The notes beneath the pieces were generated by a model that was not told where the DNA came from, searched no databases, and was given only the letters and a program-made list of their open reading frames with translations. Positions 27,915-63,998 of a stretch of DNA of 64,000 nt are shown piece after piece (the stretch's first letter is position 1; every line of letters starts with the position of its first letter). Source of the DNA: Acidimicrobiales bacterium. GTDB taxonomy: Bacteria > Actinomycetota > Acidimicrobiia > Acidimicrobiales > RAAP-2. The position numbers were made by a program, and so were the translations under genes. The DNA is taken from positions 573-64,572 of the forward strand of contig DATJTU010000118.1 in NCBI GenBank assembly GCA_035503015.1, in the 5' to 3' direction.

Positions 27915-27931
27915 TGGTAGCCTCTTCGTCC

Positions 27932-29032: not shown

Positions 29033-29040
29033 GCAGTGCG

Positions 29041-39481: not shown

Positions 39482-39482
39482 C

Positions 39483-44372: not shown

Positions 44373-44459
44373 ACTTGGCTGCGCCGTTGCTGCGATGTGC
44401 TCGGCGAGTTTGCTTCCGTCTCGTCCGGGTCATTTCGCCTGGGCGTGGACGGAACACAC

Positions 44460-46277: not shown

Positions 46278-46465
46278 GTGGAATCCTCCCTCAAATTCCT
46301 CCCGAGCACGACCGCGTTCGTGCCTCGGACAACGCCTGATACGTCCGCCTGACTCGCCATCTTGGGCCCGCCGCACGGAGGGCCATGACCGCCGGGTACC
46401 ACTATGGAGGCTGCAGCGCGCGCCCGGCGGGATTGGGTCTGAGTTCTTCTCTAGTTCACAAAGAT

Positions 46466-47842: not shown

Positions 47843-48577
47843 GTGCGTTCTCACAGGATGTCGGGTCAAGGGGCCATGGTCGAGGGTTACGGTGTGCCCC
47901 CCGCGCAGGGCACAGTGAGGGTCGCCACGAGCACCGATGTGGCCGCGGTGGCGTCGCTTCATTCGAAGGCGATCGCCGAAGGGTTCCTGTCCTCGCTCGG
48001 GAACCGATTCCTGGTTCGCCTCTATGCCCGGATCGTCCGCTCGCCTCATGGGTTCTTGCTCGTCGCGGAACGGGAGGCACCGACGGCCGGCACCGAGTCC
48101 GACGCCGCGTGCCCTGGTGACGTCGTGGGGTTCGTCGCCGGATCAGCCGCTGTGGGTCTCCTGTACCGGGAATTCCTGTGGCGAGATGGACTCGCGGTCG
48201 CCTTCTCATCGGGTATCAAGCTGGCCCAGGCGTTGCCGAAGGTCGTCGAGACACTTCGCCACGGAAGTCGGGACGATCCGGCGCAAACACGTGCAGGCAA
48301 AGCGCACGGATCCGCGCCCACCGAGACCGAACTCCTGGCGATGGCAGTCGACGGGCGAGCGCGCCGCCACGGCATCGGTGCCGCGCTCGTCGAGAGTTTC
48401 ATCGAATCGGCCCGGGCGACCGGATCTGAATCGGCTCGGGTCGTCGTCGCGGCGGAGAACCGAGCAGCCATCGCCTTGTACGCCGGGGCAGGCTTCGGCG
48501 ACCCCACGCCGTTCGAACTTCACTCCGGAACCCCGTCGCTTGTCCTGCGGGCCACGCTGACGAGGGTGCTCCCGTGA
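47843..48577 (+). CDS. GNAT family N-acetyltransferase
   Basis: Motif A LAMAVDGRARRHGIGAALV, followed by AIALYAGAGF. The start is uncertain (47843 to GTG 47915). Confidence 0.7.
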   Translation: MRSHRMSGQGAMVEGYGVPPAQGTVRVATSTDVAAVASLHSKAIAEGFLSSLGNRFLVRLYARIVRSPHGFLLVAEREAPTAGTESDAACPGDVVGFVAGSAAVGLLYREFLWRDGLAVAFSSGIKLAQALPKVVETLRHGSRDDPAQTRAGKAHGSAPTETELLAMAVDGRARRHGIGAALVESFIESARATGSESARVVVAAENRAAIALYAGAGFGDPTPFELHSGTPSLVLRATLTRVLP

Positions 48578-49547
48578 CGCCGGAGGCGAGCCTTGCTGTG
48601 GCGGCAGGTGCATTTTGCGCTTCGCTCGCAGCAACGCCACTCGCGGCCCGATTGGCCACGCATGTCGGGTTGCTCGACCGACCCGGTCCACTCAAGCCAC
48701 ACACGCGCGCCACGCCGTACCTCGGCGGTCTCGGCGTGGCCGCCGGTGTGGGCCTCGGCGCAGCCGTCGTCATGCCCTGGTTGCTCGTGCCGGCAGGGAT
48801 GGCACTTGCGCTGGGCACGGCGGACGACGTCCGACCGCTTCCCCCCGCGCTTCGCGTGCTAGGGGAACTGGCGATCGGTCTGGCGCTGGCCGCGGTGGTC
48901 TCGACACGCGTCGGCGCAGCAGGGTACGTCCTGGTGCCGGCCGCCACACTTGCCCTCATCAACGGGTTCAATCTCCTCGACGGGCTCGACGCGCTCTGCG
49001 GCGCCGTCGCCCTGGCGGCGGCCATCGGATTCAGCGCGCTTCTCACCGGGGACCCGCGGACCCTCGCGTTAGCACTCGCGGCAACGATGGCCGCATTCTT
49101 GATCTTCAATCGCCCGCCCGCAAAGGTGTATCTCGGCGACGGCGGCGCCTACCTGGTGGCTGTCGTGGTGACGGCGCTGCTGGCGTGCGCCTGGTCGCCT
49201 GCACAGTCACGGTCGACGGGAATTGCCGCCCTTGCGGTCGTCGCGCTGCCCGTCGTCGAGGTCGTACTGGCACTGTTTCGGCGCGTGCGCTCTGGATCAT
49301 CACTCGTCGCAGGCGATCGCGATCACCCATATGACGTACTCGTTCGATCGGGTTGGAGCATCCGCCGGACGGTGAGCGCGTACATGCTCGCGGAACTGGC
49401 GGCCGTTGCGCTTGCCCTCGCCGCCTCACACCTCGTGGACCCGTTTGCCTGGGTCCTGACCGCCCTCACCGCATTGGGATTGCTCGCCACAGGATTCAGA
49501 GCCGCGTCGGCTGCGCCGAACCACAAACCGATGGGCGAGCGCTCGAC

Positions 49548-49551
<4 letters not shown>
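48574..49551 (+). CDS. Polyprenyl-phosphate N-acetylhexosamine-1-phosphate transferase (MraY/WecA family)
   Basis: About 10 TM helices. Motifs seen: TADDVRPLP, INGFNLLDGLDAL and VYLGDGGAY. The GTG start overlaps the GNAT stop (GTGA). Confidence 0.8.
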
Positions 49552-50678
<1,127 letters not shown>

Positions 50679-50688: not shown

Positions 50689-51702
50689 ATGTCGAGCCCG
50701 GTCTCCGAGCGGCCTCAGTTCGCCTATCTCGTCCTGAGCCACAAGGACGCAAAGGATGTCGAAACTCTCGCCGACCGGATCCTCGAACTAAGTCCCTGCG
50801 CACGAATCGTGGTCCACCACGACGCGAGGGCGGGCGCCGCACCGTGGGCCGGCGAACCGCCGGCGCCGATCCATCTCGTCGAACGCGGCGAGGTCTCGTG
50901 GGGTGACTGGTCGATGATCGAGGCGACGCTGCGACTGCTTCGGTACGGCGTCGAGCGGACCGATGCCGACTGGTTCGTCCTGCTCTCGGGCGAGCACCGC
51001 CCCGCGGTCGACCTCGAGGCGTGGGAGGTGACGACCGTGGCCTCCGGCAGCGACGCGCTCTTGCCGGCGCGCCGGCTTCCTGGTCGTGTCCGTTTCGGCA
51101 CGAGGGCCGCCGAAGACAACGAGTACCTGGCACGGAGCCGACACCGTTGGTCGCTGGTCGCGCGCCCCCGCCAGCCTGCCGCGCAGCGTGCGATGGGCCT
51201 TCTGATGAAGCTCAGCCGCCACGTGCGGCCTGTGCTGTCCATCGAATACGTGCATCGTCGTGATTCGTGGGCCGTCGGTCGCTTTCGACGCGCAGGGGTC
51301 ATGAAGGAGAGGGCCTTCTACCGGGGCTCCCAATGGTTCGCGTTGAATCGCCGCAGCGCCACCGCCGCGCTCACGGTCGATCCCGCAACGAAGGAGTGGT
51401 TCACGCGCAGCTGGATCCCCGACGAGACGTACTTGCAGACGGCCCTGCGCGGCGATCCGAGCCTTCTCATCGCGGACACGCCGACCACCTTTGTCCTCGA
51501 CACGCCGGAGAAGCCCTTTCCCGGATGGATGCAGCTCTCGGACGCGGACCTTCCGGCCGTCCACGCATCGGGACTGCCTTTCGCCCGAAAGGTCGACCCG
51601 ATCAACCGCCCCGAGGTCGTTGCACGCCTTGACGAGGCAGCCGATCGCCAACGTGACGCGCTCCCGACACGCAAGGACGGACGGCCTCGGACCCTGAAAT
51701 GA
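50689..51702 (+). CDS. Glycosyltransferase family 14 (Core-2/I-branching enzyme type), copy 1
   Basis: Branch-domain blocks FAYLVLSHKD, VSWGDWSMIEATLRLL, VLLSGEHRP, GSQWFALNRR, IPDETYLQTAL and PFARKVD. Confidence 0.85.
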   Translation: MSSPVSERPQFAYLVLSHKDAKDVETLADRILELSPCARIVVHHDARAGAAPWAGEPPAPIHLVERGEVSWGDWSMIEATLRLLRYGVERTDADWFVLLSGEHRPAVDLEAWEVTTVASGSDALLPARRLPGRVRFGTRAAEDNEYLARSRHRWSLVARPRQPAAQRAMGLLMKLSRHVRPVLSIEYVHRRDSWAVGRFRRAGVMKERAFYRGSQWFALNRRSATAALTVDPATKEWFTRSWIPDETYLQTALRGDPSLLIADTPTTFVLDTPEKPFPGWMQLSDADLPAVHASGLPFARKVDPINRPEVVARLDEAADRQRDALPTRKDGRPRTLK

Positions 51703-51830
51703 GCCGTCGATGCCTGGTCTACACTCCGCTTCGCCGGAGGTTGACAGCGAGCACACACCTACACGTGTTCGCGTAATCGTCACGACCCGGGCGGCGCGGA
51801 GCAAAGACGCAGCGTTCGAAGGATCATCTG

Positions 51831-52853
51831 GTGGAAGCTGCAGTGTCCGGAAAGGGGATCGAGGGTTCGAGCGAAGTCCGTGGCGGCTGCGCATACCTCG
51901 TCCTGTCCCACAAGAACCCGTCGCAGGTCGAAAGCCTGGCGCAGCGAATCCTTGCCCTGAGCCCAACCGCCTCCGTCGTCATCCACCACGACCGCACGGG
52001 TGGTCCCCCGCCCTGGGACGGGCGAGAGCCACCGGCCCGTGTCCAGTTCGTCGAGCGGACGGCCGTCGAATGGGGCGGCTGGTCGATCGTCGAGGCCACG
52101 GTGAGGCTGCTCCGTTTCGCCCAGGAGGAGCTCGACCACGAGTGGGTCGTGATCGTGTCCGGGGAGCATTGGCCCGTGACCGACTTGGCCTCGTGGGAAG
52201 CAGAGCTGGTCGCCTCCGGTGCCGACGCCCGGATGCCGGCCGAGGAGTTACCCCGGAGGCTCCGCTTCGGACGGCGGGACGCGGACGCCAACCGCGATCT
52301 GGCGCGGTGCCGGCTTCGCTGGTTCCGCGTCGCGCGGCCTCGCTGGGCACCGGCGCACAAAGCACTCGCCGGCCTCTCGAAGCTCAGCACCCTGAGTCAC
52401 CCCGTCTGCAAGCTCGAGTTCTCCCAGCGCAACGATTCCTGGTTCGTTGGTGTCCCCCGCCGTAGAGGCGCAGTCACCGGGTGGACGCTGTTCAAGGGTT
52501 CAGAGTGGTTCGCCTGCAACAGACGAGCCGCTGCGGCCGTGCTGCAGGCGGACGAGCGAGTTGCCTCGTGGTTCCGCCGCAGCCACATCCCAGACGAGTC
52601 GTACTTCCAATCGCTCTTGCACCGTGACGGCCGGCTCAGGATCGATCACAGGGTGGTCACCTGGGTGCCTCCGCAACCACCGGCACCGACACAGGGCTGG
52701 ATGCTGCTCAAAGCCGACGAGCTTCCCGCGGTAGTGACTTCGGGCGCTGCCTTTGCGAGAAAGTTGGATCCCAAGCGCAACCCCGAGGCCATCGCGGCAA
52801 GTGATGCGTATGTCGACGCAACGAGACAGTCCACAGCGGAGCGCGTCCCGTGA
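51831..52853 (+). CDS. Glycosyltransferase family 14, copy 2
   Basis: GTG start with a GAAGGA 7 nt upstream. Blocks CAYLVLSHKN, VEWGGWSIVEATVRLL, VSGEHWP, GSEWFACNRR, IPDESYFQSLL and AFARKLD. Confidence 0.85.
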   Translation: MEAAVSGKGIEGSSEVRGGCAYLVLSHKNPSQVESLAQRILALSPTASVVIHHDRTGGPPPWDGREPPARVQFVERTAVEWGGWSIVEATVRLLRFAQEELDHEWVVIVSGEHWPVTDLASWEAELVASGADARMPAEELPRRLRFGRRDADANRDLARCRLRWFRVARPRWAPAHKALAGLSKLSTLSHPVCKLEFSQRNDSWFVGVPRRRGAVTGWTLFKGSEWFACNRRAAAAVLQADERVASWFRRSHIPDESYFQSLLHRDGRLRIDHRVVTWVPPQPPAPTQGWMLLKADELPAVVTSGAAFARKLDPKRNPEAIAASDAYVDATRQSTAERVP

Positions 52854-54892
52854 ACGCGACACGACTCGCGGGTTTCGACCTCGTGGATGAGGACGCTCGT
52901 TTCGCCTACCTCATTCTCACCCACAAGGATCCGCATCAGGTCGAGGCGCTCGCGGAGCGGATCCTCGGCCTGAGCCCGCATGCGCAAGTCGTCATCCATC
53001 ACGATCTTGCCGCCGACGACGTGCCGTGGGGCGGTCGGCCGCCGAGCCGGGTCCATTTCGTCGAGCGCGGCCGGGTCCTGTGGGGCGACTGGTCGATCGT
53101 CGAGGCCACCCTGCGCATGGCCCGCTTCGCGCTCGAGCAACTCCGAGTCGACTGGTTCGTCGTGCTCTCGGGGGAGCACTGGCCGGTGACAGACCTTCGT
53201 CAGTGGGAGGCGACGGCTGCCGGATCAGGGGTCGACGCGTTCGTCGAAGCGGACCGGCTGCCTCAGCGGCTCCGTTTCGGGCGGGCGGACGAGGGCGGGA
53301 ACATGTACCTGTCCCGCTGCATCCACCGCTGGGTAAGCGTGCGCCAACCTCGCCTGTCCGCCGCCCATCGGGCGATCGGGGGCGTGTGGAAGGTCAGCCT
53401 CTACCTCAGCCCCCTCTTTACCGTGGAGTACTCCCACCGCCGCCAGACGTGGTTTTTCGGCCGCCCCCGGCCGCGCGGCGCGCTCGAGCAGTGGGCGTTC
53501 TACAAGGGATCGCAATGGATCGCCTTCAATGCCAAAGCGGCGAGAGCCATCTTGGACGCCGACCCCGCACTTCCAGAGTGGTTCCGATCGGGCCACATCC
53601 CAGACGAGACCTATTTCCACACCGTGCTGCGCCATGCCGATGATCTCGTCGTCACGACCGACACCGTGACCTACGTGCCGGTCGGGCCGAAGAAGCCGAC
53701 CCCGCGATGGATGGTGCTCACACTCGACGACCTTCCGACCGTGTGGGCCTCCGGCGCGGCGTTTGCCCGCAAGGTCGACCTCGCCGGCCGACCTGAAGTG
53801 ATCGAAGCCCTCAACGCCGAAGTCGACCGCCGACGGGCGGGCGGCAGCGACCGCCCGCAACCCGACGACACACCGAACGAGCGGGCGAAGCCGGGAATGC
53901 CGCCGTCCCGATCGAAGCCGGACGCTCCATCGTGTGTCGCCGTCGTCGGGATGCACCGGAGCGGCACGTCTGCGACCGCCGGGCTGCTCGTCGGCCTGGG
54001 CCTCACCGGCCCGCGCCCAGACGACCTCGTCCCCGCCAGCGACTCGAACGAACGTGGCCACTGGGAGAGCGAGACGGTGCACATGTGCAATGTGCGCGTG
54101 TTGGCGGCCAGGGGCGCCGACACGTACGCACCACCGCCTCCCTCGTCGGGATGGGAGTACGACAACCGGTTCGACCCCCTCCGGGCCGAGGCCGCACAGT
54201 GGTTCGGCTCCACCCTCAGCCGCCGGCCTGTCGTCCTCAAGGACCCACGGTTGTGCCTCACCCTGCCGCTGTGGAGGACCGCGCTACCCAGCCCACTGGC
54301 GACGGTGTTCGTGCTCCGCGATCCGCTCGAGGTGGCTCGCTCCCTACAAGCCCGCGACGAGCTGCCGACGGTCCTCGGCTTGGCACTGTGGGACCGCTAC
54401 GTGCGCTCGGCTGTCCTCAGCCTCGAGGGTTTGCCCACGCTGGTGGTCGACTACGCGGCGATGGTGCAGGACCCCGCCAAGTGGAGCGACGTGGTCTGCG
54501 GCTATCTCGAGGAGCTGGGTATCGACCTCCAACCCGACGCACGCGATGCCGCGTTGAAGTTCCTCGATGCACGCTTGCGGCACCACACGGACGAGAACCC
54601 GGAGTACGAGCCGCTCCTCGGAGCGCACCGCGAGGTCCACGCCATCCTGGCTGAACGCGTCGGGGGACATCGCTCCTGGTCGGCCCCCGAGCTCCCGCCC
54701 GCGCCGCCGTGGGCGGACTACGTCCTACAACTCCGTCGCGAAGTCGTCTTGGCCAAACACGAGCTCTACTGGACGAAGTCGTCGCGCATGTTCAGGGCGG
54801 CGAGCTCGCTGTGGCGCCTGACCGGGGGCGGTCCGCGGGAGTCGGTGCGCGAGTTCGGCTCTGCCGAAGACGATTCGGCGTCGAGGCCGTGA
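52850..54892 (+). CDS. Bifunctional GT14 glycosyltransferase - sulfotransferase fusion
   Basis: aa 1-330 form GT14 copy 3 (FAYLILTHKD, VLWGDWSIVEATLRM, LSGEHWP, GSQWIAFN, IPDETYFHTVL, AFARKVD). A Pro/Arg linker follows. From about nt 53930 comes a sulfotransferase domain (VVGMHRSGTSATAG, VLKDPRLCLTLPLW, VLRDPLEVARSL). The GTG start overlaps the upstream TGA. Confidence 0.85.
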   Translation: MNATRLAGFDLVDEDARFAYLILTHKDPHQVEALAERILGLSPHAQVVIHHDLAADDVPWGGRPPSRVHFVERGRVLWGDWSIVEATLRMARFALEQLRVDWFVVLSGEHWPVTDLRQWEATAAGSGVDAFVEADRLPQRLRFGRADEGGNMYLSRCIHRWVSVRQPRLSAAHRAIGGVWKVSLYLSPLFTVEYSHRRQTWFFGRPRPRGALEQWAFYKGSQWIAFNAKAARAILDADPALPEWFRSGHIPDETYFHTVLRHADDLVVTTDTVTYVPVGPKKPTPRWMVLTLDDLPTVWASGAAFARKVDLAGRPEVIEALNAEVDRRRAGGSDRPQPDDTPNERAKPGMPPSRSKPDAPSCVAVVGMHRSGTSATAGLLVGLGLTGPRPDDLVPASDSNERGHWESETVHMCNVRVLAARGADTYAPPPPSSGWEYDNRFDPLRAEAAQWFGSTLSRRPVVLKDPRLCLTLPLWRTALPSPLATVFVLRDPLEVARSLQARDELPTVLGLALWDRYVRSAVLSLEGLPTLVVDYAAMVQDPAKWSDVVCGYLEELGIDLQPDARDAALKFLDARLRHHTDENPEYEPLLGAHREVHAILAERVGGHRSWSAPELPPAPPWADYVLQLRREVVLAKHELYWTKSSRMFRAASSLWRLTGGGPRESVREFGSAEDDSASRP

Positions 54893-57018
54893 GCAAGACC
54901 GCCCGCCCGGAGGCGCAGAACCAGACGGCAGATCGCGTCGGCACGCACGCCGTCGTGGTCGGCATGCACCGCAGCGGCACCTCCGCGGTGGCGAACGCGA
55001 TCGCGCAGCTCGGACTGGCTCTGCCCGACACCTCCGACCTCATCACGCCCGGCCCGTTCAACGAACGGGGTTACTGGGAGAGCCGGCGGTTCGTCACCTA
55101 TAGCGACACCATTCTGCGGCACCTCGGCGGGACCTGGTCGGCCCCGCCGTCGCCCGCTGAGGGTTGGGCAGAGTGGACGGACCGAGCCACGTCTGAGCTC
55201 AGGTCGGGCGCGGCGGCCTTCGCACGACGGGAGTTCACTGCGCCGCACCTCGTCTTGAAGGACCCCCGGCTCTGCATCACGCTGCCGCTCTGGCGGACGG
55301 TCCTCTTAGAGCGACCCGCCGCGGTTCTGGTGCTACGCGACCCGCTGGAAGTTGCCCGTTCCCTCGCGCACCGCAACGACTTTCCGCTGTCCCTCGGTCT
55401 TGCCCTGTGGCGTCGCTACGTGCAGCAATCCCTTCACGGCATCGAGGGGCTCCCGGTCTACGTGATCGAGTACGGCGAGCTCTTGGCCGATCCCCGGACG
55501 GTCCTCACCGACCTCGCCGCATTCCTCGCGAGCCACGGCGTGGCGGTCCGCGACGACCTGGGGGCGGCCACCGGTGCCCTCGAACCCACCCTCCGGCACC
55601 ATCAGGACGATGCCGGTGATCCGGCGAACGCCGGCGGCGCCGACGACCTGGTCGCCGGCCAGCGGTCGTTCCTGCAGTCCGTTCTCACCAGACGTGGCGC
55701 CAACCCGCACTGGTCGGCCTTCGACCCGGCGCCCGAGCCGGCGTGGGTCGACGACCTGATCGCACTCGAGCGCAACGGTGAGATGGTGTCCTTCGGACTG
55801 GCCCGGACCGAATCGGAGCTCAAGTGGATCAAGCGCTCACGGTTGTTCGCAGCCACACGGGCGATCTGGCGGGCGACCTCTACCGGTCCCGCCCTCTCCG
55901 ACGCCTCTCACCCGGGCAACGGCAGCGCTCTTCCGGCCTCGCGGCCGTCGCCACGCCTGCAGCAGTGGGCGGGCACGGCGCGACGAGCCCTCGACCGGCG
56001 ACAGGGTGCCGGTACTCAGCAGATCCCGAACGAGACCAACCCGGTCGATCCGGACACGATTGCCGATTTCCGGCTGCACGCGGTCATCAAGACATGGATG
56101 GACGAGGACATCATCGAGGCCTGCGTGCGCAACGCGTTCGCACAGGGCGCCGACGCGGTGTTCCTCGTCGACAACGCCAGCACAGACGCGACCTGTGCAC
56201 GGGCGCGGGACGCCGGCGCGACGGTCGCGGAGGTCTACGAGACGGAGGTCTTCGACGGCCGGCTGGTCCAGCAGCTCGTCAACGCCGTCGTCGCCCGCGA
56301 GTCGTTGCGCAGTGGCGCCGATCACGTCTGGTGGCTCCTGCTCGACAGCGACGAATTCCCGGAAGGGCCGCGCGGCGAGACGGTCCGCGAATATCTGGCG
56401 GGACTCGACCGTCGCTTCCGGGTGGTCGGGGCCTCGTTCATGAACCACCTCCCCGACGGATCCCCGCAGTACGTCGAGGGATTCCATCCCATCGATTTCC
56501 AGCCGCTGTGCTACCGCTTCGAACCGGCCAATCACGCCCCGTGTCCACTCGGCCATTGGAAGCACCTGCTGCAGCGCTTCGACCGCCACGGGCAATTCGT
56601 CGTGAGCAACGACGGTGCCCACCTCGCATTCTGCTCGGAGCGGCTGGTCGAACCGGAGGTGGGCATCGTCGTGCACCACTTCCAATACCGTGACGAAGGC
56701 GTGACCCGGGCCAAGCTCGATCTCATCTGTGGGTCAGCCACGAACCGGGTCGGCCTCCACGAGTCCGCCGGCTTCAGCGGCTTCGCGCGGCGCCACCGGT
56801 CCCTCGACGCGGTCTATGCCCAGCGCTGGGCGGAGGTGGACGTGCTGCCGAACCGGCAGGCGGGCGCCCACCAGAACCCGAGACCGTGGCCCGGTGCCGC
56901 GGACGTCACGCGCTGGTACGAGCAGGGTGACACGGAGCGAGCACGAGACGGCGACGAGGTGCATCCAGCAGGGGTGGGCACGTCGTCGGGACCCCAAGAA
57001 CCAGATCCGGCGCCGTGA
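54889..57018 (+). CDS. Bifunctional sulfotransferase - GT-A (GT2-like) glycosyltransferase fusion
   Basis: GTG at 54889 overlaps the upstream TGA (GTGA). The N-terminal domain is paralogous to the preceding sulfotransferase (VVGMHRSGTSAVAN, VLKDPRLCITLPLW, VLRDPLEVARSL). From about nt 56065 comes a GT-A domain (AVIKTWMDEDIIEACV, FLVDNASTDAT, LLLDSDEF). Confidence 0.8.
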   Translation: MSKTARPEAQNQTADRVGTHAVVVGMHRSGTSAVANAIAQLGLALPDTSDLITPGPFNERGYWESRRFVTYSDTILRHLGGTWSAPPSPAEGWAEWTDRATSELRSGAAAFARREFTAPHLVLKDPRLCITLPLWRTVLLERPAAVLVLRDPLEVARSLAHRNDFPLSLGLALWRRYVQQSLHGIEGLPVYVIEYGELLADPRTVLTDLAAFLASHGVAVRDDLGAATGALEPTLRHHQDDAGDPANAGGADDLVAGQRSFLQSVLTRRGANPHWSAFDPAPEPAWVDDLIALERNGEMVSFGLARTESELKWIKRSRLFAATRAIWRATSTGPALSDASHPGNGSALPASRPSPRLQQWAGTARRALDRRQGAGTQQIPNETNPVDPDTIADFRLHAVIKTWMDEDIIEACVRNAFAQGADAVFLVDNASTDATCARARDAGATVAEVYETEVFDGRLVQQLVNAVVARESLRSGADHVWWLLLDSDEFPEGPRGETVREYLAGLDRRFRVVGASFMNHLPDGSPQYVEGFHPIDFQPLCYRFEPANHAPCPLGHWKHLLQRFDRHGQFVVSNDGAHLAFCSERLVEPEVGIVVHHFQYRDEGVTRAKLDLICGSATNRVGLHESAGFSGFARRHRSLDAVYAQRWAEVDVLPNRQAGAHQNPRPWPGAADVTRWYEQGDTERARDGDEVHPAGVGTSSGPQEPDPAP

Positions 57019-57944
57019 GCATCTTCGAACGCGGTCGGCCGGATCCACGCTTCGGGCCCGACCAAGGTCCCGTGGTCGTCGGCGGCGTCGGCGGGAGCGG
57101 CACGCGAGTGGTCGCGGAGATCATGCGCCACCTCGGCGTCTACACCGGGTCCGTGCTCAACAAGGCCGGCGACAACAAGTGGTTCAGTCTGCTTTGCAAG
57201 CTCCCGCGCTTCGAGCTCGACAACGGAGCGGACGCGGTGCAGATCGAGCGCTCGCTGGACCTCCTCGAGCGCGCCATGACAGGGCAGCTCTCGTGGACCC
57301 GCGAGCGCCGCACGATCAAGGAGATCGTCGACCGCTGCGAGGCCCGAGCCAGCCTCCGGCCCCTCTGGGACGACCGCTCACCAGAGTGGCTGCGGACGGT
57401 GGCGGCGACGTTGCGTCACGCCAGGCGGAACGCGCCGGCCGATGCGCCGGTGTGGGGCTGGAAGGAGCCCAACAGTCATCTCTTCCTCCCTCACATGCTG
57501 CAGCACTTCGGCGAACGGATGCGCTACGTGCACGTCATCCGCAACGGTGTGTACATGGCCTACAGCGCCAACCAGGCTCAGGTGAGCCGGTGGGGCCGCT
57601 ACTTCGGCGTCGACGTGGAGGATGGCTCACCGACGCCACGGGACTCGCTCGACTACTGGATCGCGGCCAACGAGCTCGCGATGACGCGTGGGCGGGCACT
57701 GGGGCCGGATGCGTTCTTGATGGTGAACTACGACCAATTGTGTGCGCAGCCAGCTGTGGTGGTCCCGCTGCTCGCGGCGTTCCTCGGCTTCGACCCGCCG
57801 CCGGCCCAAATCGACGAACTCGTGGCGTTGCCCCGTGCTGCGAGGCCACCGGCGCTGACCCGCACGCAGATGGAGGACGAGTTCGGAGAAGAGCGGCTAT
57901 CGCGCGTGCGCGGGCTCGGCTTCTCCCTCGAGGATGCGGCATGA
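57015..57944 (+). CDS. Sulfotransferase family protein (divergent)
   Basis: The GTG start overlaps the upstream TGA. P-loop-like GGVGGSGTRVVAE, then WGWKEPNSHLFLP and HVIRNGVYMAYS (an RDP-type motif with Asn). Confidence 0.65.
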   Translation: MSIFERGRPDPRFGPDQGPVVVGGVGGSGTRVVAEIMRHLGVYTGSVLNKAGDNKWFSLLCKLPRFELDNGADAVQIERSLDLLERAMTGQLSWTRERRTIKEIVDRCEARASLRPLWDDRSPEWLRTVAATLRHARRNAPADAPVWGWKEPNSHLFLPHMLQHFGERMRYVHVIRNGVYMAYSANQAQVSRWGRYFGVDVEDGSPTPRDSLDYWIAANELAMTRGRALGPDAFLMVNYDQLCAQPAVVVPLLAAFLGFDPPPAQIDELVALPRAARPPALTRTQMEDEFGEERLSRVRGLGFSLEDAA

Positions 57945-57954: not shown

Positions 57955-58842
57955 TCAGCGAACGCTGGGCTCCGGCGTCCCGGTCCCGGGCTGCTCGAGG
58001 CGGCGGTAAAAGTCGGGGGCTGCGCAGATCGCCCGATACATCTCGTCCGACCTGCGCTCTTCTTTGCGTATGTACGAGTTGAGCTTCCGAGCCCGAAGCG
58101 AATCACGGGCGAGTCGGACGACCTTTCGGGCGTGCGCCGGACGGAGGTCCGTCACCGACCTTCCACGCGCCTGGGTCCGCAGGTAGAGGTACTCCTCGTT
58201 CTCGGACACGGGGACGTTGGCCTGGTCGGCCCGCGCGATCGGCGGCCTGAACCCCGCGCCGTGGTGGTAGATGTGCCCGTCGTAGATCCCGTATAGCACC
58301 GGGTGGAGATCGACCGCGTTCGACCGCAGGATGGGGCGCCACGCGACAGACCTCTCGTCGAGGAGCGACAGCAACCGGCCCCCGACGTCGGCAGCTTCGA
58401 CGCCCTGGTCGGTGACCCACGGTCCCGGACGCCAATCCCCTCCGACGTCGGCCCAGAACCCCACCGTCGTGACGCAGAAGGAGGGATGGGGCTGGATGTC
58501 GCCGCCGTTCTCGTCCCGGCGCACCGCGGCCAGGGGATGGTCGGACAAGAGCTCCTCGAGCCAATCCCCGAGCGGGCGGATGGGGAACGCATCCCCGTCG
58601 ATGAAGACCAAGAGATCATCCCGATCCGCGTGCTCGCCGATCGCGCGGGCCAGAGCATTCAGCTTGTCCGCGTGCGTGCCGCCGTTCCTCGTGATGTAGG
58701 AGAAATGCGAGTCGACCTCTGAGCCAACGCCCTGCAGGTTGGCGTAGGTGCGGTAGGGCGCCGGGACGAAAGAGGACAGGCCACGGCTCTGGGGCCCGAC
58801 CCATTTCGGGTCCATCCAGTGGACGGTGGCGATGTGGATCAT
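57955..58842 (-). CDS. Hypothetical protein, possible GT-A-like transferase
   Basis: 295-aa ORF with a DxD in a strand context (LLVFIDGDAFPIRP). No family assigned. Confidence 0.45.
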   Translation of the reverse strand: MIHIATVHWMDPKWVGPQSRGLSSFVPAPYRTYANLQGVGSEVDSHFSYITRNGGTHADKLNALARAIGEHADRDDLLVFIDGDAFPIRPLGDWLEELLSDHPLAAVRRDENGGDIQPHPSFCVTTVGFWADVGGDWRPGPWVTDQGVEAADVGGRLLSLLDERSVAWRPILRSNAVDLHPVLYGIYDGHIYHHGAGFRPPIARADQANVPVSENEEYLYLRTQARGRSVTDLRPAHARKVVRLARDSLRARKLNSYIRKEERRSDEMYRAICAAPDFYRRLEQPGTGTPEPSVR

Positions 58843-58848: not shown

Positions 58849-59841
58849 CTACGCGCCCGCGACTGCCTGCGTACGGGGACGGCTCCCTCCGGTTCCTCCA
58901 GCGGTCCCCGTGAGCATGTCGGCCTCGTACCAGTCGACCGTCGCGCGGAGGCCGAACCCAAGAGGTGTGGCCGAGACGCCCGGGAAGAGGCTGCGCAGCG
59001 CAGTGGAGTCGCCTTGCGAATCGTGGACGTCGCCCGGTCGCGATGGGCCGTGCTGGGTCGCGAGGCGTTTGCCGAGCAGACGCTCGAGCTCGGAGATCAA
59101 CGTGAGCAGTGAGGTCCGGGAGCCGAAGGCGAGGTTGACCGGCTGGTCAGCGGTGACCGACTGCTCGACGGCGCCAGCGATCACTGCCGCGACATCGCCG
59201 ACGTACGTGAAGTCGCGGGTCTGGGTCCCGTCGCCGTCGACGGTCAACGGCCGCCCCGCGAGCGCAGCGTTGATGAACGACGGGATCACCGCCGCGTAGG
59301 CGTGGTCGGCGCGTTGGAGGGGACCGAACACGTTGAAGAAGCGAAACACGAGCGCGGGAAGGCCGAAGGAGCGCGCGTACGCCAGGGCGTAACCCTCGGT
59401 CGCCAGCTTGCTTGCCGCGTACGGGCTCGCCGGCCGGGTGGGATGGTCCTCGCGTGTGGGCATGGTGACCCCCCGCCCGTACACCGAAGAGGACGAAGCG
59501 ACGACGACGTGCGTCCCGTGCCGGCGCGCCTCCTCGAGTACGACCACGGTGCCGGTGGCGTTGGCATCGTGGCTGGCCCGGGGGTCTTCGAGCGACCTGG
59601 CGACGGCGGGCACCGCGGCCAGATGCACGACGGCGTCGGTGTAACCGACGAGCTGCGCCACCAGGCCCTCGTCGAGGATCGTGCCCTCGACGAGCTCGAC
59701 ACCCTCTACATCGGCAAGGTTTGCGCGATTCCCGGTCGAGAGGTCGTCGAGGACGACGATGCGCCCATTCCCCGCAGACCGCAGTGCACGGCAGACGTGC
59801 GACCCGATGAAGCCGGCACCGCCGGTGACGAGGACGTCCAT
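58849..59841 (-). CDS. NAD-dependent nucleotide-sugar epimerase (SDR, WbpP/TviC-like)
   Basis: VTGGAGFIGSH, the catalytic YAASK, and RFFNVFGP. Its ATG directly abuts the dehydrogenase TAG (TAGATG). Confidence 0.85.
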   Translation of the reverse strand: MDVLVTGGAGFIGSHVCRALRSAGNGRIVVLDDLSTGNRANLADVEGVELVEGTILDEGLVAQLVGYTDAVVHLAAVPAVARSLEDPRASHDANATGTVVVLEEARRHGTHVVVASSSSVYGRGVTMPTREDHPTRPASPYAASKLATEGYALAYARSFGLPALVFRFFNVFGPLQRADHAYAAVIPSFINAALAGRPLTVDGDGTQTRDFTYVGDVAAVIAGAVEQSVTADQPVNLAFGSRTSLLTLISELERLLGKRLATQHGPSRPGDVHDSQGDSTALRSLFPGVSATPLGFGLRATVDWYEADMLTGTAGGTGGSRPRTQAVAGA

Positions 59842-61128
59842 CTACAGGCGCTCGACGTTGGGCCCGTCGACACGACCCCTGGTGTCGAGCAGGTAGCGGG
59901 CATCACAGACGATGCCCTCCAAGTCGAAGGCATCGTGGTCCGTCACGAGCACCACGGCGTCCGCAGCCGCAACGATCTCCGGACTCGGGTCGACCAGCTG
60001 AGCCGGAAGGCCGTCATCGAGGGTGTGGGCCAGCGTCCCGAGATCGGCGACGTGCGGGTCGGCGACGCTCACATCGGCCCCGGACCGGCGGAGCAATTCG
60101 ACGATGACGCGCCCTGGGCTCTCCCGAGAATCGCCCGTGTTCCGCTTGTACGCCAGGCCGAGCACGAGGATCCTGCTCCCGTTCAGCGGCTTCGACGAGC
60201 GGTTCAGCCCTTCAGTGAGCCGCTTGACCACGTACTCGGGCATGTGGTCGTTGACGTCGTTTGCCAGCTCGACGAAGCGGAAGGTCTGCCCGAGTGAACG
60301 ACGGACCCGCCACGACAGGTAGCTCGGGTCGATGGGCAGGCAGTGGCCACCGACCCCCGGACCCGGCTTGAAGGAGAGGAAGCCGAACGGCTTCGTGGCG
60401 GCGGCGTCGATTGCCTCCCATACGTCGATGTCGAGCGCGTTCGCGTAGACCGCCAGCTCGTTCATCAACGCGACGTTGACGTGCCGGAAGGTGTTCTCCA
60501 GCAGCTTCGTGAGCTCGGCCTCCCGTGGCGTCGACACGGGCACGGTCCGTTCGACGATCGTGTCGAAGAACCCCTGGACGGCAGCGAGTGATGCCTCGTT
60601 GACACCTGAGACGACCTTCGGGGTGTTCACCAGGTTCCACTCGGCGTTTCCGGGATCGATGCGCTCGGGGCTGTAGCCGAGGTGGAAATCGTGGCCGGGG
60701 ACGAGCCCGGATCCGGCCTCGATGAGCGGTGCGACGAGCTCCTCGGTCGTTCCGGGATACGTCGTCGACTCGAGGACCACGGTCGAACCCGGCCGGACGT
60801 GGGCGGCGACCACGCGGGCAGCGTCTTCTACATGTGACAGGTCGGGCACGCCCTCTCTCAGCGGGGTCGGGACGTCGATGATCGCCACATCGAACCCGTC
60901 AAGGTCCTCTTCTTCGGTGGTGACCCGATAGCGACCCGATGCCAACGCCTCGCCGAGAACGGCGGAGGGCACGTCACTCACGAACGACTCACCCTCCGCG
61001 AGGGCTTTGACGCGAGCCACGTCGCGATCGAAACCGACCACGTCGTGGCCGGCGGCGACGGCGCGCATCGCCAGCGGCAGGCCGACGTAGCCCTGCCCGA
61101 GAACCGCGACGCGACGGCGCTCCGCCAT
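59842..61128 (-). CDS. Nucleotide-sugar 6-dehydrogenase (UDP-Glc/ManNAc/GlcNAc dehydrogenase family)
   Basis: ATG at 61126-61128. VAVLGQGYVGLPLA Rossmann motif and catalytic Cys context PGPGVGGHCLPID. The substrate cannot be read from the sequence. Confidence 0.85.
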   Translation of the reverse strand: MAERRRVAVLGQGYVGLPLAMRAVAAGHDVVGFDRDVARVKALAEGESFVSDVPSAVLGEALASGRYRVTTEEEDLDGFDVAIIDVPTPLREGVPDLSHVEDAARVVAAHVRPGSTVVLESTTYPGTTEELVAPLIEAGSGLVPGHDFHLGYSPERIDPGNAEWNLVNTPKVVSGVNEASLAAVQGFFDTIVERTVPVSTPREAELTKLLENTFRHVNVALMNELAVYANALDIDVWEAIDAAATKPFGFLSFKPGPGVGGHCLPIDPSYLSWRVRRSLGQTFRFVELANDVNDHMPEYVVKRLTEGLNRSSKPLNGSRILVLGLAYKRNTGDSRESPGRVIVELLRRSGADVSVADPHVADLGTLAHTLDDGLPAQLVDPSPEIVAAADAVVLVTDHDAFDLEGIVCDARYLLDTRGRVDGPNVERL

Positions 61129-61173
61129 GCTCACATCACCGACCGGCTGACCGGGGCGGGGTGCCACTCGAGG

Positions 61174-62100
61174 TCACCCCTCGAGTCCAGGCAGCGGGTG
61201 CGCGGCCAGCCGGCGTCGGGCGCGGGGGTCGGGCTGAAACGAGCGGCTCCAGGCGGAGATGGGGACGACGTCGGGCACGCGGAACATCTCCCACGCGCTG
61301 CGGACAGCGTCGGCCAGCACGGCCTCCAGCCGCCACGACGATGCCTGGCGTTCGATCTTCCGCACCGACACATCTTCTCGCAGAACGAGCTGCACCACAT
61401 CACGCTGTGCCAGCAGGTCCTTGCGGAAGACGTTGAGACGGGCGTGGACACACGCGGCGATCAGCCGCTCCTCCCGCCCCAGGGCACTGATCGTGACCGT
61501 TCGTGGGGTGAACGCCACCCGGTCGTGAAAGAGATCGCCCGCTTCCACTTGGGCGCCCACGCGCTTGGGGGCCAGCGCCGTGTACAAGACGACGCGCACC
61601 CCGTCCCTCGAGTAGTACGACGTCACGCTCTGTCGCCGAAGCCTCCGCTTGGCAGCATCGGGGCGCAGGATGCCCTGCTCGACGAGGACTGACACAGCCT
61701 CTTCACGTTGATCAGGGCCGACAAGCAGGTGCAGGGTGTCGTAGAGCCGAAGGTCCCGTTGTCTGTAGTCCAGCGCCGCGCTGGCCGCCCCGTGCATCAA
61801 GCAGGTCTGGATTCCCTTTTGGTCGAGTGCTCCCACGACCTCGTCGAGGCAACGATCGGCGGCCGACCGCCGTTCGTGTGCGACCTCGAGGTGCTCGCTC
61901 AGCTCCTCGTGCTGCTCACCGGTGACGGGGAGCGCGCCGCTGTCGGCCGCCTGCACCGCCAGACCGAGCACGAGCTCGCCGGTCAGCGCGGCGAGCAGGC
62001 CCTGCCAGATCTCCTTGCCCAACGGCCGGTTGATGATGGGGAGCGATGACGGATGAAGGCCGTACCCCGCAATCGAAACAAGAAGATCCGCTGGCGTCAC
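61174..62100 (-). CDS. Hypothetical protein, possibly of the uncharacterised nucleotidyltransferase (NTP_transf_5-like) family
   Basis: 308-aa ORF whose GTG start overlaps the dehydratase stop (GTGA at 62097-62100). The family call is a weak impression from length and context. Confidence 0.4.
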   Translation of the reverse strand: MTPADLLVSIAGYGLHPSSLPIINRPLGKEIWQGLLAALTGELVLGLAVQAADSGALPVTGEQHEELSEHLEVAHERRSAADRCLDEVVGALDQKGIQTCLMHGAASAALDYRQRDLRLYDTLHLLVGPDQREEAVSVLVEQGILRPDAAKRRLRRQSVTSYYSRDGVRVVLYTALAPKRVGAQVEAGDLFHDRVAFTPRTVTISALGREERLIAACVHARLNVFRKDLLAQRDVVQLVLREDVSVRKIERQASSWRLEAVLADAVRSAWEMFRVPDVVPISAWSRSFQPDPRARRRLAAHPLPGLEG

Positions 62101-63998
62101 GCCGGGATTTCATCTTCGACCGCCACGGACGGCAGCGCATGCCGGCTCGTCCGCTTGGCGTCGATATCCCCCATGTCCCCCATGTCCTCTGTTTCCTGCA
62201 CGTCCTCCCCGACCATGTCGAACAGCACGCGACGGGAACGGACTTCGTTGCGATCTGCTGCCGCCAGCGAAAGTTCCGCCAGCCCCGTCTCGAGACGGTC
62301 CTCTCGCCAGTACTCGGCCGACGAGCGCTGCAGGCGGAGCACGGACGGGTGTTCGGTGGCGACGAGGTGCTCGCTCGGGCTGTGCAGCTGCTCGTGCAGG
62401 CGCTCGCCGACCCTGGGCCCGATGATGCGGATCTGGATGTCCGTCCCCGGATGGAGACCCGACAGCCTGATCATCCGCTTCGCCAGGTCCAAGATGGAGA
62501 CCGGCTGACCCATTTCGAGCATGTAGACGTCCCCGCGCTCTGCGAGCACAGCAGATTGGAGGACGAGTTGGACCGCCTCCTCGACGCTCATGAAGAAACG
62601 CGTCATGTGCGGGTCGGTGACCGTCACCGGGCCGCCGGCTGCAATCTGCCGCCGGAAGGTCGGGATGACGCTGCCCCGGCTGCCCAGCACGTTGCCGAAG
62701 CGCACGGCACAGTAGGCCTTGCCTTCCGGCGCGTGAGCAAGCAGGAGCTGTTCGCCCACCCGCTTGGTCGCGCCCATCACGCTCGCAGGGCTCACTGCCT
62801 TGTCGGTCGAGATGAACACGAAGCGCTCGGCGTGGAAGTGCGCCGCCGCGTCGAGGACGTTCTTCATTCCCAAGACGTTCGTGTTCACGGCCTCGACGAC
62901 ATGCGTCTCGAGGATCGGCACGTGCTTGTGCGCGGCGGCGTGGAACACGACTTCGGGCTGCCAGCGTGAGAAGACCTCGAACACTGCGTCGCGGCGGGAG
63001 ATGTCTGCCAGCACCTGCTCGGCCTTGCAATCGGCGAGCTGACTCACGTCGTGCAGATGCGTCTCGTCGTGGTCGAGCATCACGAGGACCTCGGGACTGA
63101 ACCCGGCCACCTGACGGCAGATCTCCGAACCGATCGACCCGCCTGCCCCCGTCACGAGGACCCTTCGGCCCTCGAGAGCACGCCGGACGGCCGCCAAATC
63201 GGTGACGACTTCGTGGCGCCCCAAGAGGTCCTCGATGCGGGGCTCACGGGCGGAGCGGACCGAGACCGACGGAGCACTGACGGACCCGACGAGGGACCGC
63301 AGGTCGGGGACGATCTTCAGAACAGTCTTCGCCTCCTCGGCCAGGCGGACGCACCGCTCCACGAGCGTGGTCGAGGGGTCCGGGACGGCGAGCAGGATCT
63401 GCTGGATCTGTAGCTTCGCCACCATCGCAGGGATGTCGTCGATCGAACCCACGACGGGAACGCCCATGAGCGAATAGCCGTGGGTCCGACGGTCGTCGTC
63501 GAAGACGGCGACCGGGGACAGCCCGGCCTCAGGGTTGCGCAGCATGCCTCGCACGACTGCCGCCCCGGCGTCGCGACTCCCGATCACGCCGACGCGCAAC
63601 CCCATTCCCCTGTTCGCCCTCTGAAACCCGAGCAAGCGCGAGTGGAAGCGCAGGACTCCGATCCCCAGCATGCTGAGGAGACATCCCAACGGCAGCACGA
63701 GGAACGGGACCCGGGTGACGCCTTCTGAAAATCCGAGCGGGTACAACGCCGTGAGCACCAAGAGCGTGGCGAGACACGACAGCACGATGTTGCGCGCCTC
63801 TTCGATGCCGGCATGCCTCCAGATGCGTCCGTAGAGCCCGAAGCACCAGTTGGCGATCAACTGCACCGTCAGCGTCACCGCGAGGAAGAACGCGAGCTTG
63901 TGGAGGTAGTCGGCTGGAGCCCTGTCCCGCAACGAGGCGGCTTCGGCCAGTCCGTACGCGGTGAGAATGACCGCAGCGTCGAGGAGGATGAACACCAC
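62097..63998 (-). CDS. Membrane-bound polysaccharide biosynthesis protein CapD/PglF/WbpM-like (UDP-HexNAc 4,6-dehydratase)
   Basis: Four N-terminal TM helices, a first Rossmann VGVIGSRDAG and an SDR domain VTGAGGSIGSE with MGATKR. The first codon (GTG at 63996-63998) lies 2 nt from the window edge, so the true 5' end may lie outside. Confidence 0.85.
   Translation of the reverse strand: MVFILLDAAVILTAYGLAEAASLRDRAPADYLHKLAFFLAVTLTVQLIANWCFGLYGRIWRHAGIEEARNIVLSCLATLLVLTALYPLGFSEGVTRVPFLVLPLGCLLSMLGIGVLRFHSRLLGFQRANRGMGLRVGVIGSRDAGAAVVRGMLRNPEAGLSPVAVFDDDRRTHGYSLMGVPVVGSIDDIPAMVAKLQIQQILLAVPDPSTTLVERCVRLAEEAKTVLKIVPDLRSLVGSVSAPSVSVRSAREPRIEDLLGRHEVVTDLAAVRRALEGRRVLVTGAGGSIGSEICRQVAGFSPEVLVMLDHDETHLHDVSQLADCKAEQVLADISRRDAVFEVFSRWQPEVVFHAAAHKHVPILETHVVEAVNTNVLGMKNVLDAAAHFHAERFVFISTDKAVSPASVMGATKRVGEQLLLAHAPEGKAYCAVRFGNVLGSRGSVIPTFRRQIAAGGPVTVTDPHMTRFFMSVEEAVQLVLQSAVLAERGDVYMLEMGQPVSILDLAKRMIRLSGLHPGTDIQIRIIGPRVGERLHEQLHSPSEHLVATEHPSVLRLQRSSAEYWREDRLETGLAELSLAAADRNEVRSRRVLFDMVGEDVQETEDMGDMGDIDAKRTSRHALPSVAVEDEIPA

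Follow-up and report, generated by a model that had tools for sequence, protein, structure and literature searches.

A conserved, tightly packed operon of Acidimicrobiales with tandem GT14 genes and putative glycosyltransferase-sulfotransferase fusions

Introduction

Can bacteria join glycosyl transfer and sulfation on a single polypeptide, and what kind of glycan would such enzymes make? These questions are raised by a gene cluster at positions 50689-57944 of a 64,000-nucleotide (nt) stretch of DNA (hereafter the window) from an Acidimicrobiales metagenome-assembled genome (MAG). An earlier reading of the letters alone (the original prediction) had described three tandem genes of glycosyltransferase family 14 (GT14), the third of which continues into a sulfotransferase (ST) domain, followed by a gene in which a paralogous ST domain precedes a GT-A glycosyltransferase domain and by a stand-alone ST gene, and had proposed that together they assemble a sulfated, glycosaminoglycan (GAG)-like surface glycan. 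Here, we show that this tandem and reciprocal-fusion arrangement is real and forms a tightly packed operon. We propose that the operon, which is conserved in related genomes, builds a short, acidic, sulfated amino-sugar glycan on polyprenyl-phosphate at the cytoplasmic face, a reading to which we assign a probability of roughly 0.6.

Results

Two reciprocal fusions share a putative sulfotransferase domain

All open reading frames (ORFs) and motifs on which the proposed layout was based are present in the ORF listing, the alignments and the Pfam searches, and the layout of three GT14 domains, a GT14-ST fusion, an ST-GT2 fusion and a further stand-alone ST is supported by Pfam, fold and motif evidence (Table 1). 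GTGA start/stop overlaps connect GT14b with GT14c-ST (52850-52853), GT14c-ST with ST-GT2 (54889-54892) and ST-GT2 with ST3 (57015-57018), the last two as originally stated. The claim that all five genes are translationally coupled therefore holds for these three junctions but not for GT14a and GT14b, which are separated by 128 nt (51703-51830), a gap in which no terminator-like site was found. The window proteins are identical to HTU37585-HTU37590 from a third-party-annotation (TPA) MAG labelled Acidimicrobiales bacterium, in line with the actinobacterial origin that had been assumed. In this public annotation GT14b and GT14c-ST (HTU37587.1) are both named 'beta-1,6-N-acetylglucosaminyltransferase' and ST-GT2 (HTU37588.1) 'glycosyltransferase family 2 protein', which leaves out the ST domain of both fusions.

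The two fused ST domains, C-terminal in GT14c-ST and N-terminal in ST-GT2, are 40% identical over 313 amino acids (aa; E 9e-65) and are thus clearly paralogous, as predicted. Because their Pfam Sulfotransfer_3 scores lie below the gathering threshold, their assignment rests on fold and motifs. An AlphaFold2 model of GT14c-ST aa 341-680 (predicted local distance difference test, pLDDT, 88; predicted template modelling score, pTM, 0.84) was compared with the PDB by Foldseek, and all 50 matches listed are sulfotransferases dependent on 3'-phosphoadenosine-5'-phosphosulfate (PAPS), 31 of them at E<=1e-3. The best match is TPST1/2 (E 1.5e-6, probability 1.00), and others include the ST domains of CurM and OLS, cytosolic SULTs, Stf1, Stf0 and Teg12. 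With only PAPS sulfotransferases among the matches listed, an assignment of these domains to another P-loop family finds no support.

The motif evidence points in the same direction. Relatives of the ST domain down to 24% identity retain G-M-H-R-S-G-T-S, the Glu in [HY]-[WF]-E-S, K-D-P-R and R-x-P-x-x-V-A-x-S without exception. In GT14c-ST, the 5'-phosphosulfate-binding loop (5'-PSB) reads VVGMHRSGTS and the 3'-phosphate-binding motif (3'-PB) RDPLEVARS, and G-M-H-R-S-G-T-S and R-D-P-x-x-V-A-x-S are invariant in three ST alignments (A2, A3 and A4). When the first ST profile (A2) was compared with the PDB, coiled-coil matches from the C-terminal tails of stand-alone relatives dominated; once restricted to the core (A4), the profile consistently, though weakly, matched sulfotransferases. 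In this comparison the motifs align with 'SSPRSGST' of the OLS ST (5'-PSB) and 'ARNPKDVAVS' of SULT1A3 (3'-PB, R130...S138), and the invariant Glu of [HY]-[WF]-E-S, a candidate for the catalytic base at the acceptor site, aligns with the H-Q-E segment of the OLS ST. The conservation of these motifs argues that the fused domains are PAPS-type sulfotransferase domains with retained catalysis.

Compared with TPST1/2 (5WRJ, 3AP1), the CurM and OLS STs (4GBM, 4GOX), Stf0/Stf1 (1TEX, 2ZQ5) and Teg12/StaL, the fused domains have in common the fold, the 5'-PSB loop x-R-S-G-[ST]-[ST] and the 3'-PB motif R-x-P-x-x-V-x-x-S, and the CurM and OLS STs are likewise domains inside larger biosynthetic polypeptides. 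In contrast, sequence identity to these enzymes is 12-18% and the TM-score just 0.4-0.5, and the window domains differ from TPST, CurM/OLS, Stf and Teg12 in having an extra helical C-terminal extension and a glycosyltransferase partner. Their presumed acceptor is a lipid-linked sugar, whereas the known enzymes act on tyrosine, a polyketide, trehalose or a glycopeptide. Many stand-alone ST relatives (P0070-P0090 in A2) have a long coiled coil at the C-terminal end and, after it, a conserved S-T-S-W-[RK]-V-T-[KR]-P-[LI]-R, while the window fusions keep a shorter helical tail (…W-T-K-S-S-R-M-F-R…). By analogy with the O-antigen chain terminators, such a tail could be a membrane-association or ruler element. 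No transmembrane (TM) segments were found in the fused proteins.

The opposite-order fusion of ST-GT2 is likewise upheld. The match of its GT-A half to Glyco_tranf_2_4 exceeds the threshold, DNASTD and DSDEF are invariant in 18 ST-GT2 orthologs, and a Foldseek search with the AlphaFold2 model returned the OLS sulfotransferase (4gox, E 5e-5) together with SpsA (1h7l, E 3e-4), GpgS and K4CP. The mean pLDDT of this model is 63, with 85-93 in the ST part and 70-84 in the first half of the GT-A part. As for ST3, the GTGA overlap and the family assignment stand, whereas BLAST detects no similarity to either fused ST domain or to the ST encoded at 19190-20062, so that the divergent sulfotransferase of the original prediction appears to belong to a different lineage. 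The 295-aa protein encoded convergently beside ST3 has no Pfam, NCBIfam or PDB-profile match and may be a candidate, possibly novel, GT-A-like enzyme.

The three GT14 paralogues

Pairwise, GT14a, GT14b and GT14c are 49-52% identical over ~320 aa (BLAST, E ~1e-100), and all three hidden Markov model (HMM) scores for the Pfam Branch domain exceed the gathering score, which places them in GT14 and bears out the description of three consecutive paralogues. GT14 enzymes are inverting enzymes that transfer from a UDP-sugar to form a beta linkage. No TM segment or signal peptide was detected in the GT14 proteins, and an alignment of 21 GT14 sequences contains no conserved DxD motif. Instead, I-P-D-E and F-A-R-K are invariant in this alignment. 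When the 21-sequence profile was compared with the PDB, I-P-D-E aligned with 'SPDE' of C2GnT-L (3OTK/2GAK) and 'LPAES' of XylT1, and the Lys of F-A-R-K with 'FANKF' (K401) of C2GnT-L, the Arg378 counterpart not being placed; these matches are weak (E 0.003-0.3). The counterpart of the I-P-D-E glutamate is presumably E320 in the S-P-D-E motif, the catalytic base of C2GnT-L. In C2GnT-L, Arg378 and Lys401 take over the role of a metal ion (PMC12595478). Judged from these alignments, the two invariant residues are the putative catalytic Glu and diphosphate-binding Lys of a metal-independent GT14 family.

The likeness to mouse C2GnT-L (GCNT1; 2GAK/3OTK) and human XylT1 (6EJ7) extends to the Branch domain and to two motifs, G-S-x-[WY]-F and P-[DA]-E, the latter with the catalytic Glu, and C2GnT-L would also share the F-A-x-K lysine that replaces the metal ion and the lack of a DxD (PMC12595478), although the similarity is at profile level only (E 0.003-0.3). 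Unlike these two enzymes, the window GT14s are soluble cytoplasmic proteins without signal anchor or disulfide cysteines, and they occur as three tandem paralogues, one of them joined to a sulfotransferase. Single-sequence PDB searches with GT14b and with the ST domain returned nothing relevant.

A systematic difference between the paralogues lies in the GS[E/Q]W motif, which has Glu in all GT14b orthologs and Gln in all GT14a and GT14c orthologs. The idea that GT14a and GT14c are dead enzymes because of this Gln was rejected, since the site itself varies in characterised enzymes (Asp in XylT1, Ala in C2GnT-L) and the catalytic Glu sits in the invariant I-P-D-E. We therefore read it as a putative specificity position and not as a sign of activity loss, and all three paralogues are probably active with differing donor or acceptor preferences.

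Related loci and the origin of the fusion

A scan of one genome per species for the fusion protein identified 13 related loci, whose synteny was compared by tblastn. All 13 are from uncultured Acidimicrobiaceae MAGs, and the lineage is without a cultured representative among the genomes found here. Synteny is kept throughout at 43-88% identity, with intact ORFs in most loci. The conserved core comprises, on the plus strand, genes for a GNAT protein, a WecA-family phosphotransferase, a DegT aminotransferase, GT14a, GT14b (missing from L003 and L011) and GT14c-ST, and on the minus strand genes for an epimerase, a nucleotide-sugar dehydrogenase, NTP_transf_5 and a PglF-like dehydratase. GT14a orthologs are 56-68% identical across these loci, and the PglF-like dehydratase 70-88%. 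In contrast to this core, ST-GT2, ST3 and the 295-aa gene occur or drop out together, being confined to the window and L001, L009, L011 and L013, and form an accessory module.

Two of the loci suggest how the GT14c-ST fusion arose. In L009, the GT14c ORF stops at a TGA and the ATG of a stand-alone ST follows 2 nt later, and in L011 GT14c and ST are separate genes with an ATGA overlap. Nanopore frameshift errors were rejected as an explanation because both junctions have canonical stops and starts. Since GT14c and ST are separate, coupled genes in these loci, the fusion appears to be recent and lineage-specific, and we infer that it arose from two translationally coupled neighbours that are still separate in two related lineages. 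On this comparison, coupling and fusion alike would tie the ST functionally to GT14c.

ORFs are disrupted in several related loci: in L005, L006, L007, L008, L012 and L013 many genes are split into two or three tblastn segments in differing frames, and GT14b of L013 contains five in-frame stops. The probable cause is long-read indel errors or, in L013, pseudogenisation. On the contig of L011 (CAWEKO010000010.1) lies a second GT14 triplet (L010) with GT4- and GT2-type neighbours and no ST, the first GT14 copy of which looks frameshifted; a GT14 triplet can therefore exist independently of an ST.

When 1.84 billion cluster representatives were searched exhaustively with HMMER, 16,898 proved related to the ST domain at E<=1e-3, of which 10,850 also reached E<=1e-10. 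Many are long multi-domain proteins. Of the nine longest proteins among the top hits, eight carry GT2 domains, with or without a GT4-type domain, and their ST is N-terminal, central or C-terminal; partners in other relatives are methyltransferases, cupin/JmjC domains and a Wzx-type domain. By contrast, a Branch domain ahead of the ST was found in the Acidimicrobiaceae set only. Full-length GT14-ST homologues in metagenome data number about 30 (52-78% identity), and no source name mentions the sulfotransferase part. To judge from these domain compositions, ST-GT2 fusions are a common but uncharacterised architecture in metagenomes, present in Proteobacteria as well, and GT14-ST fusions are rare.

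Flanking sugar genes and the proposed pathway

The genes on either side of the fusions (Table 1) suggest which sugars are made. The dehydratase, the aminotransferase, whose start we infer to lie at an ATGA overlap with the preceding gene, and the GNAT protein, a candidate 4-N-acetylase of the primer sugar, suggest synthesis of a 2,4-diacetamido-2,4,6-trideoxyhexose UDP-sugar as primer, similar to N,N'-diacetylbacillosamine (diNAcBac). The dehydrogenase scores higher with NCBIfam models for UDP-ManNAc dehydrogenase (277 bits) and TviB (197 bits) than with TuaD (104 bits), and would thus be closest to the UDP-ManNAc/UDP-GlcNAc, that is UDP-N-acetylhexosamine (UDP-HexNAc), dehydrogenases and not to Ugd. 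Together with the epimerase it suggests formation of a HexNAc-uronic acid.

Table 1. Features of the window discussed here, with coordinates. Pfam gathering scores are 23.4 (Branch PF02485), 27 (Sulfotransfer_3) and 27.5 bits (Glyco_tranf_2_4).
Feature	Coordinates	Strand	Evidence and parts
Sulfotransferase, 'fourth' of the original prediction	19190-20062	-	Sulfotransfer_3 61 bits, Sulfotransfer_1 56 bits
GNAT N-acetyltransferase, first plus-strand operon gene	47843-48577	+	Acetyltransf_1 E 7.6e-10; syntenic in L001, L003-L006, L009, L011
Polyprenyl-phosphate HexNAc-1-P transferase, WecA/MraY family, polytopic	48574-49551	+	Glycos_transf_4 PF00953 71 bits; NCBIfam ECA_wecA E 5.6e-24 (below cutoff); 8 hydrophobic segments
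DegT/LegC/PseC-type sugar 4-aminotransferase	49548-50678	+	DegT_DnrJ_EryC1 318 bits; NCBIfam LegC 355, PseC 241 bits (below cutoffs)
GT14a	50689-51702	+	Branch 45.7 bits
GT14b	51831-52853	+	Branch 54.6 bits
GT14c-ST fusion, HTU37587.1	52850-54892	+	Branch 52.3 bits (aa 18-140), Sulfotransfer_3 18.3 bits (aa 363-554); GT14 ~aa 1-335, Pro-rich linker ~aa 336-365, ST ~aa 366-600, helical C-terminal extension
ST-GT2 fusion, HTU37588.1	54889-57018	+	Sulfotransfer_3 26.2 bits (aa 22-213), Glyco_tranf_2_4 31.6 bits (aa 405-491); ST ~aa 20-335, low-confidence linker ~aa 336-390, GT-A/GT2 from ~aa 395 (DNASTD, DSDEF)
ST3, stand-alone sulfotransferase	57015-57944	+	Sulfotransfer_3 48 bits
295-aa conserved protein, family unassigned	57955-58842	-	Invariant F-x-D-G-D-A-F-P motif (alignment A5)
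Short-chain dehydrogenase/reductase (SDR) epimerase/dehydratase, GalE/TviC-like	58849-59841	-	Epimerase 208 bits; NCBIfam GalE 159, TviC 147 bits (below cutoffs)
Nucleotide-sugar 6-dehydrogenase	59842-61167	-	NDP-sugDHase 398.6 bits (above cutoff); UDPG_MGDP_dh N, central and C domains
NTP_transf_5, uncharacterised nucleotidyltransferase family	61174-62100	-	PF14907 61 bits; syntenic in all complete related loci
PglF/CapD/WbpM-type UDP-HexNAc 4,6-dehydratase, membrane-anchored	62097-63998	-	Polysacc_synt_2 352 bits and CoA_binding_3; 4 N-terminal hydrophobic segments

In the pathway that we propose, the WecA/MraY-family phosphotransferase would start a polyprenyl-linked chain, to which the three GT14s would add three successive beta-linked residues with differing specificity. 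The ST fused behind GT14c would act ahead of the following step, sulfating either the sugar newly attached by GT14c or the acceptor of that sugar, and fusion or coupling of an ST to a given glycosyltransferase would thereby fix the step, order and stoichiometry of sulfation. In genomes that carry it, the accessory module may lengthen the glycan by one or two sugars and add more sulfate groups. PAPS is confined to the cytoplasm, and since the fused enzymes are also soluble, sulfation would have to fall within the cytoplasmic stage of assembly.

Discussion

Our analysis supports the architecture that had been predicted and revises its product. A GAG-like polymer lacks support in two respects. 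First, the cluster and the 10-kb flanks of the related loci yielded no alternating polymerase, Wzy, Wzx or ABC exporter, nor was a GT2/GT45 dual-domain synthase or HAS-like membrane synthase found in the cluster and related loci. Second, the sugar-nucleotide genes indicate a diNAcBac-type primer and HexNAc-uronic acids and not a GlcA/HexNAc disaccharide repeat. Nor is the combination of GT14 and ST a eukaryotic signature in this case, as had been stated, because bacterial exopolysaccharide (EPS) loci commonly carry GT14 (PMC6843789) and the ST subfamily comprises more than 10,000 clusters at 50% identity, many of them GT2-fused.

Several observations weigh against the proposed short, sulfated, lipid-linked glycan. 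The fused ST domains score below the Sulfotransfer_3 gathering score (18.3 and 26.2 versus 27 bits), their nearest folds are tyrosylprotein sulfotransferases and not carbohydrate sulfotransferases, and the GT-A half of ST-GT2 is modelled with moderate-to-low confidence. Donor and acceptor sugars are deduced from neighbouring genes alone, with most equivalog-level NCBIfam scores below cutoff. No genes for PAPS synthesis (cysD/N/C) or PAP phosphatase (3'-phosphoadenosine-5'-phosphate) were found among the ORFs scanned in the window, while in Vibrio the clustering of cysNDC with ST genes has been called a hallmark of loci for sulfated capsular polysaccharide (CPS) (PMC11641403). Export is the other gap: no flippase, polymerase, exporter or ligase was found in the cluster or the 10-kb flanks of the related loci, no flippase, polymerase, oligosaccharyltransferase or exporter is recognisable downstream of the PglF-like gene in L003, L004, L006 and L007, and the initiating transferase and the PglF-like anchor are the only multi-TM proteins at 46.4-64 kb. 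A Wzx/Wzy or ABC-transporter locus is therefore lacking in the cluster, the Wzm/Wzt pair at 11-13 kb belonging to another locus.

This Wzm/Wzt pair (11059-13147) is also the starting point for an alternative that we regard as unlikely, namely that sulfate is a chain-terminating cap, with the GT14s acting as a processive polymerase, the fused ST ending growth at the non-reducing end and the distant transporter exporting the chain. The WbdD kinase/methyltransferase and the WbbB Kdo cap are chain-terminating analogues of such a system, and several features fit it: the cluster has no Wzy/Wzx, the stand-alone ST relatives carry the long C-terminal coiled coils that dominated the PDB profile search, the ST model itself ends in long helices (H280-330), and multi-domain GT/ST proteins of 850-1290 aa resemble the multi-module enzymes of O-polysaccharide synthesis. 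In Aeromonas salmonicida an ST-domain gene even adjoins wzt and wbbB, yet no sulfate has been seen in that O-antigen (PMC4483657). The transporter pair, however, is 35 kb distant and part of another complete glycan locus, which has an ST of its own, no Wzt carbohydrate-binding domain was detected, and up to three ST domains per operon exceed what a single cap would need. Moreover, the accessory ST-GT2 has its glycosyltransferase downstream of the ST, suggesting that sulfated residues are extended further.

Also improbable in our view is a pgl-like role, in which a sulfated hexa- or heptasaccharide, made from a diNAcBac-type primer by three to five transferases, would be flipped and attached to surface or secreted proteins. 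In its favour, the pgl systems of Campylobacter and Neisseria follow a diNAcBac logic with a triad of dehydratase, aminotransferase and acetyltransferase, which is present here by family-level matches, no gene for a polymerase was detected, and the gene at 44460-46283 (-) beside the operon, syntenic in L001, L003, L004 and L006, encodes a secreted Big_3_5 repeat protein, with a sortase and large surface proteins nearby. Adjacency to a surface protein is weak evidence, however, and no oligosaccharyltransferase (PglB/PglL/AglB-like) or flippase was identified; in addition, the initiating enzyme is WecA-type and not PglC-type, and the acetyltransferase belongs, like PseH, to the GNAT type instead of the PglD type. 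The comparison with PglF-PglE-PglD and PseB-PseC-PseH accordingly extends to the clustering of a membrane-anchored Polysacc_synt_2 dehydratase, a DegT aminotransferase and an N-acetyltransferase, whereas the equivalog scores in the window are all below cutoff and the cluster is without the synthase genes of Pse/Leg pathways. Finally, although the tyrosylprotein sulfotransferase folds, the subthreshold Pfam scores, the lack of PAPS genes in the window and the predicted protein modification by dioxygenase-fused bacterial ST relatives (PMC2938197) could be taken to mean that the ST-like domains sulfate proteins or peptides (as TPST or RaxST) or are degenerate nucleotide-binding scaffolds or regulators of the fused glycosyltransferases, we consider this very unlikely in view of PAPS-binding motifs (5'-PSB Arg/Ser/Thr, 3'-PB Arg...Ser), W-E-S Glu and K-D-P-R that are invariant down to 24% identity, of repeated independent fusions to GT2, GT4 and GT14 that are best explained by a shared glycan substrate, and of the translational coupling of GT14c and ST even where they are unfused.

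How unusual, then, would sulfation during lipid-linked assembly by fused enzymes be? The statement that sulfated bacterial polysaccharides are uncommon was too strong, given the synechan xss locus of Synechocystis (PMC8205485), the CPS locus of Vibrio sp. KMM 8419 with cysNDC in the cluster (PMC11641403) and the wps-1 locus of Actinoplanes missouriensis, for which a sulfated EPS is predicted but unverified (PMC13390465). Like the window operon, these loci cluster glycosyltransferases with PAPS-type STs, and Actinoplanes also belongs to the Actinomycetota. They differ in that their STs are, in the parts of these reports seen, described as separate genes, whereas those of the window are fused to GT14 and GT2, and in that they carry Wzx/Wzy or ABC export genes and, in Vibrio, cysNDC, none of which is present in the window cluster. 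As for the glycosyltransferase-sulfotransferase fusion itself, our literature searches found no natural fusion enzyme of this kind and nothing relevant on sulfotransferases of Acidimicrobiia. What appears to be new is the GT14-ST protein with its reciprocal ST-GT2, within the known class of bacterial glycan loci that bear PAPS sulfotransferases. For GT14, none of the bacterial members had been characterised as of 2019, despite the frequency of such genes in Lactobacillus EPS loci (PMC6843789).

Architectural parallels exist in two other systems. WbbB and WbdA/WbdD likewise combine several catalytic modules, including chain-modifying ones, in a single polypeptide that is soluble or membrane-peripheral and contains coiled-coil or helical segments (PMC4483657 for WbbB), although the window fusions lack a kinase, methyltransferase or Kdo-transferase module and adjacent Wzm/Wzt, and the likeness is architectural only. 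NDST, too, carries an ST domain and another glycan-processing activity on one polypeptide and performs two ordered steps per chain; its partner domain, however, is a deacetylase and not a glycosyltransferase, it works on a completed polymer in the Golgi lumen, and the comparison concerns architecture, with no sequence relationship claimed.

At a little under even odds, we would go further and propose that HTU37587 and HTU37588 are the first natural bifunctional glycosyltransferase-sulfotransferases, soluble, cytoplasmic and working in lipid-linked assembly, that GT14c is the first bacterial GT14 with an assignable step, and that uncultured soil Acidimicrobiia are coated with a sulfated HexNAc/HexNAc-uronate glycan. 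If true, sulfated surface glycans, so far known mainly from cyanobacteria and marine Gram-negatives, would extend to abundant uncultured soil Actinomycetota. When heparin, chondroitin and other sulfated glycans are to be produced in microbes, carbohydrate sulfotransferases able to fold in the bacterial cytoplasm are a bottleneck, and a large uncharacterised bacterial ST family (>10,000 clusters) wired to glycosyltransferases would be a source both of enzymes and of fusion designs for fixing the sequence of sugar and sulfate transfer. The three GT14 paralogues, with their systematic Glu/Gln switch in the donor site, would in turn offer a natural specificity series.

Other features of the window

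The sulfotransferase at 19190-20062, counted as a fourth member of the set in the original prediction, does belong to the sulfotransferase family but is encoded on the minus strand, ~30 kb away, within a glycan locus of the ABC-transporter type that is separate from the operon, and its product has no BLAST-level similarity to the other STs of the window. This second locus (11059-29413) encodes Wzt (11059-12255, -) and the ABC2_membrane protein Wzm (12239-13147, -), two GT4-type transferases (13398-15979), a beta-helix protein (15802-17481, -), a protein with 10 TM segments and no family match (17707-19179, -), a further GT4-type transferase, an AsnB-type amidotransferase (20980-23340), methyltransferases and a formyltransferase (25935-26816). 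Owing to this locus, at least two ST-containing glycan loci lie within 64 kb of the genome.

Between the two glycan loci is a surface-protein region. Within 35721-39634 (-) and 29882-31648 (-), a sortase gene stands beside the gene for a 960-aa protein without a family match that has hydrophobic segments at both termini and is likely a sortase substrate, and a GH18 chitinase-like gene is near the sortase. The Arg-rich 651-aa ORF at 44397-46352 (+) was rejected as an antisense shadow, its frame-specific third-position GC content (GC3) being in the wrong frame; the real gene, at 44460-46283 (-), encodes the secreted protein mentioned above, which is Thr/Ser-rich with Ig-like Big_3_5 repeats and is syntenic with the operon in several MAGs. 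Further away, at 4194-7599 (-), genes of the circularly permuted ATP-grasp, Alpha-E and transglutaminase-like types form a conserved trio, a known co-occurring set with no assigned role that is unrelated to the glycan operon. Directly upstream of the Ig-like protein gene, a Pst-like ABC system (39483-44270, -), which might transport phosphate or a different oxyanion such as sulfate, comprises a PBP_like_2 binding protein, a permease and a 630-aa ORF in which aa 393-549 match an ABC ATPase domain; its position is kept in related loci, and in L004 the counterpart of the 630-aa ORF has 589 aa and carries permease (BPD_transp_1) and ATPase domains together.

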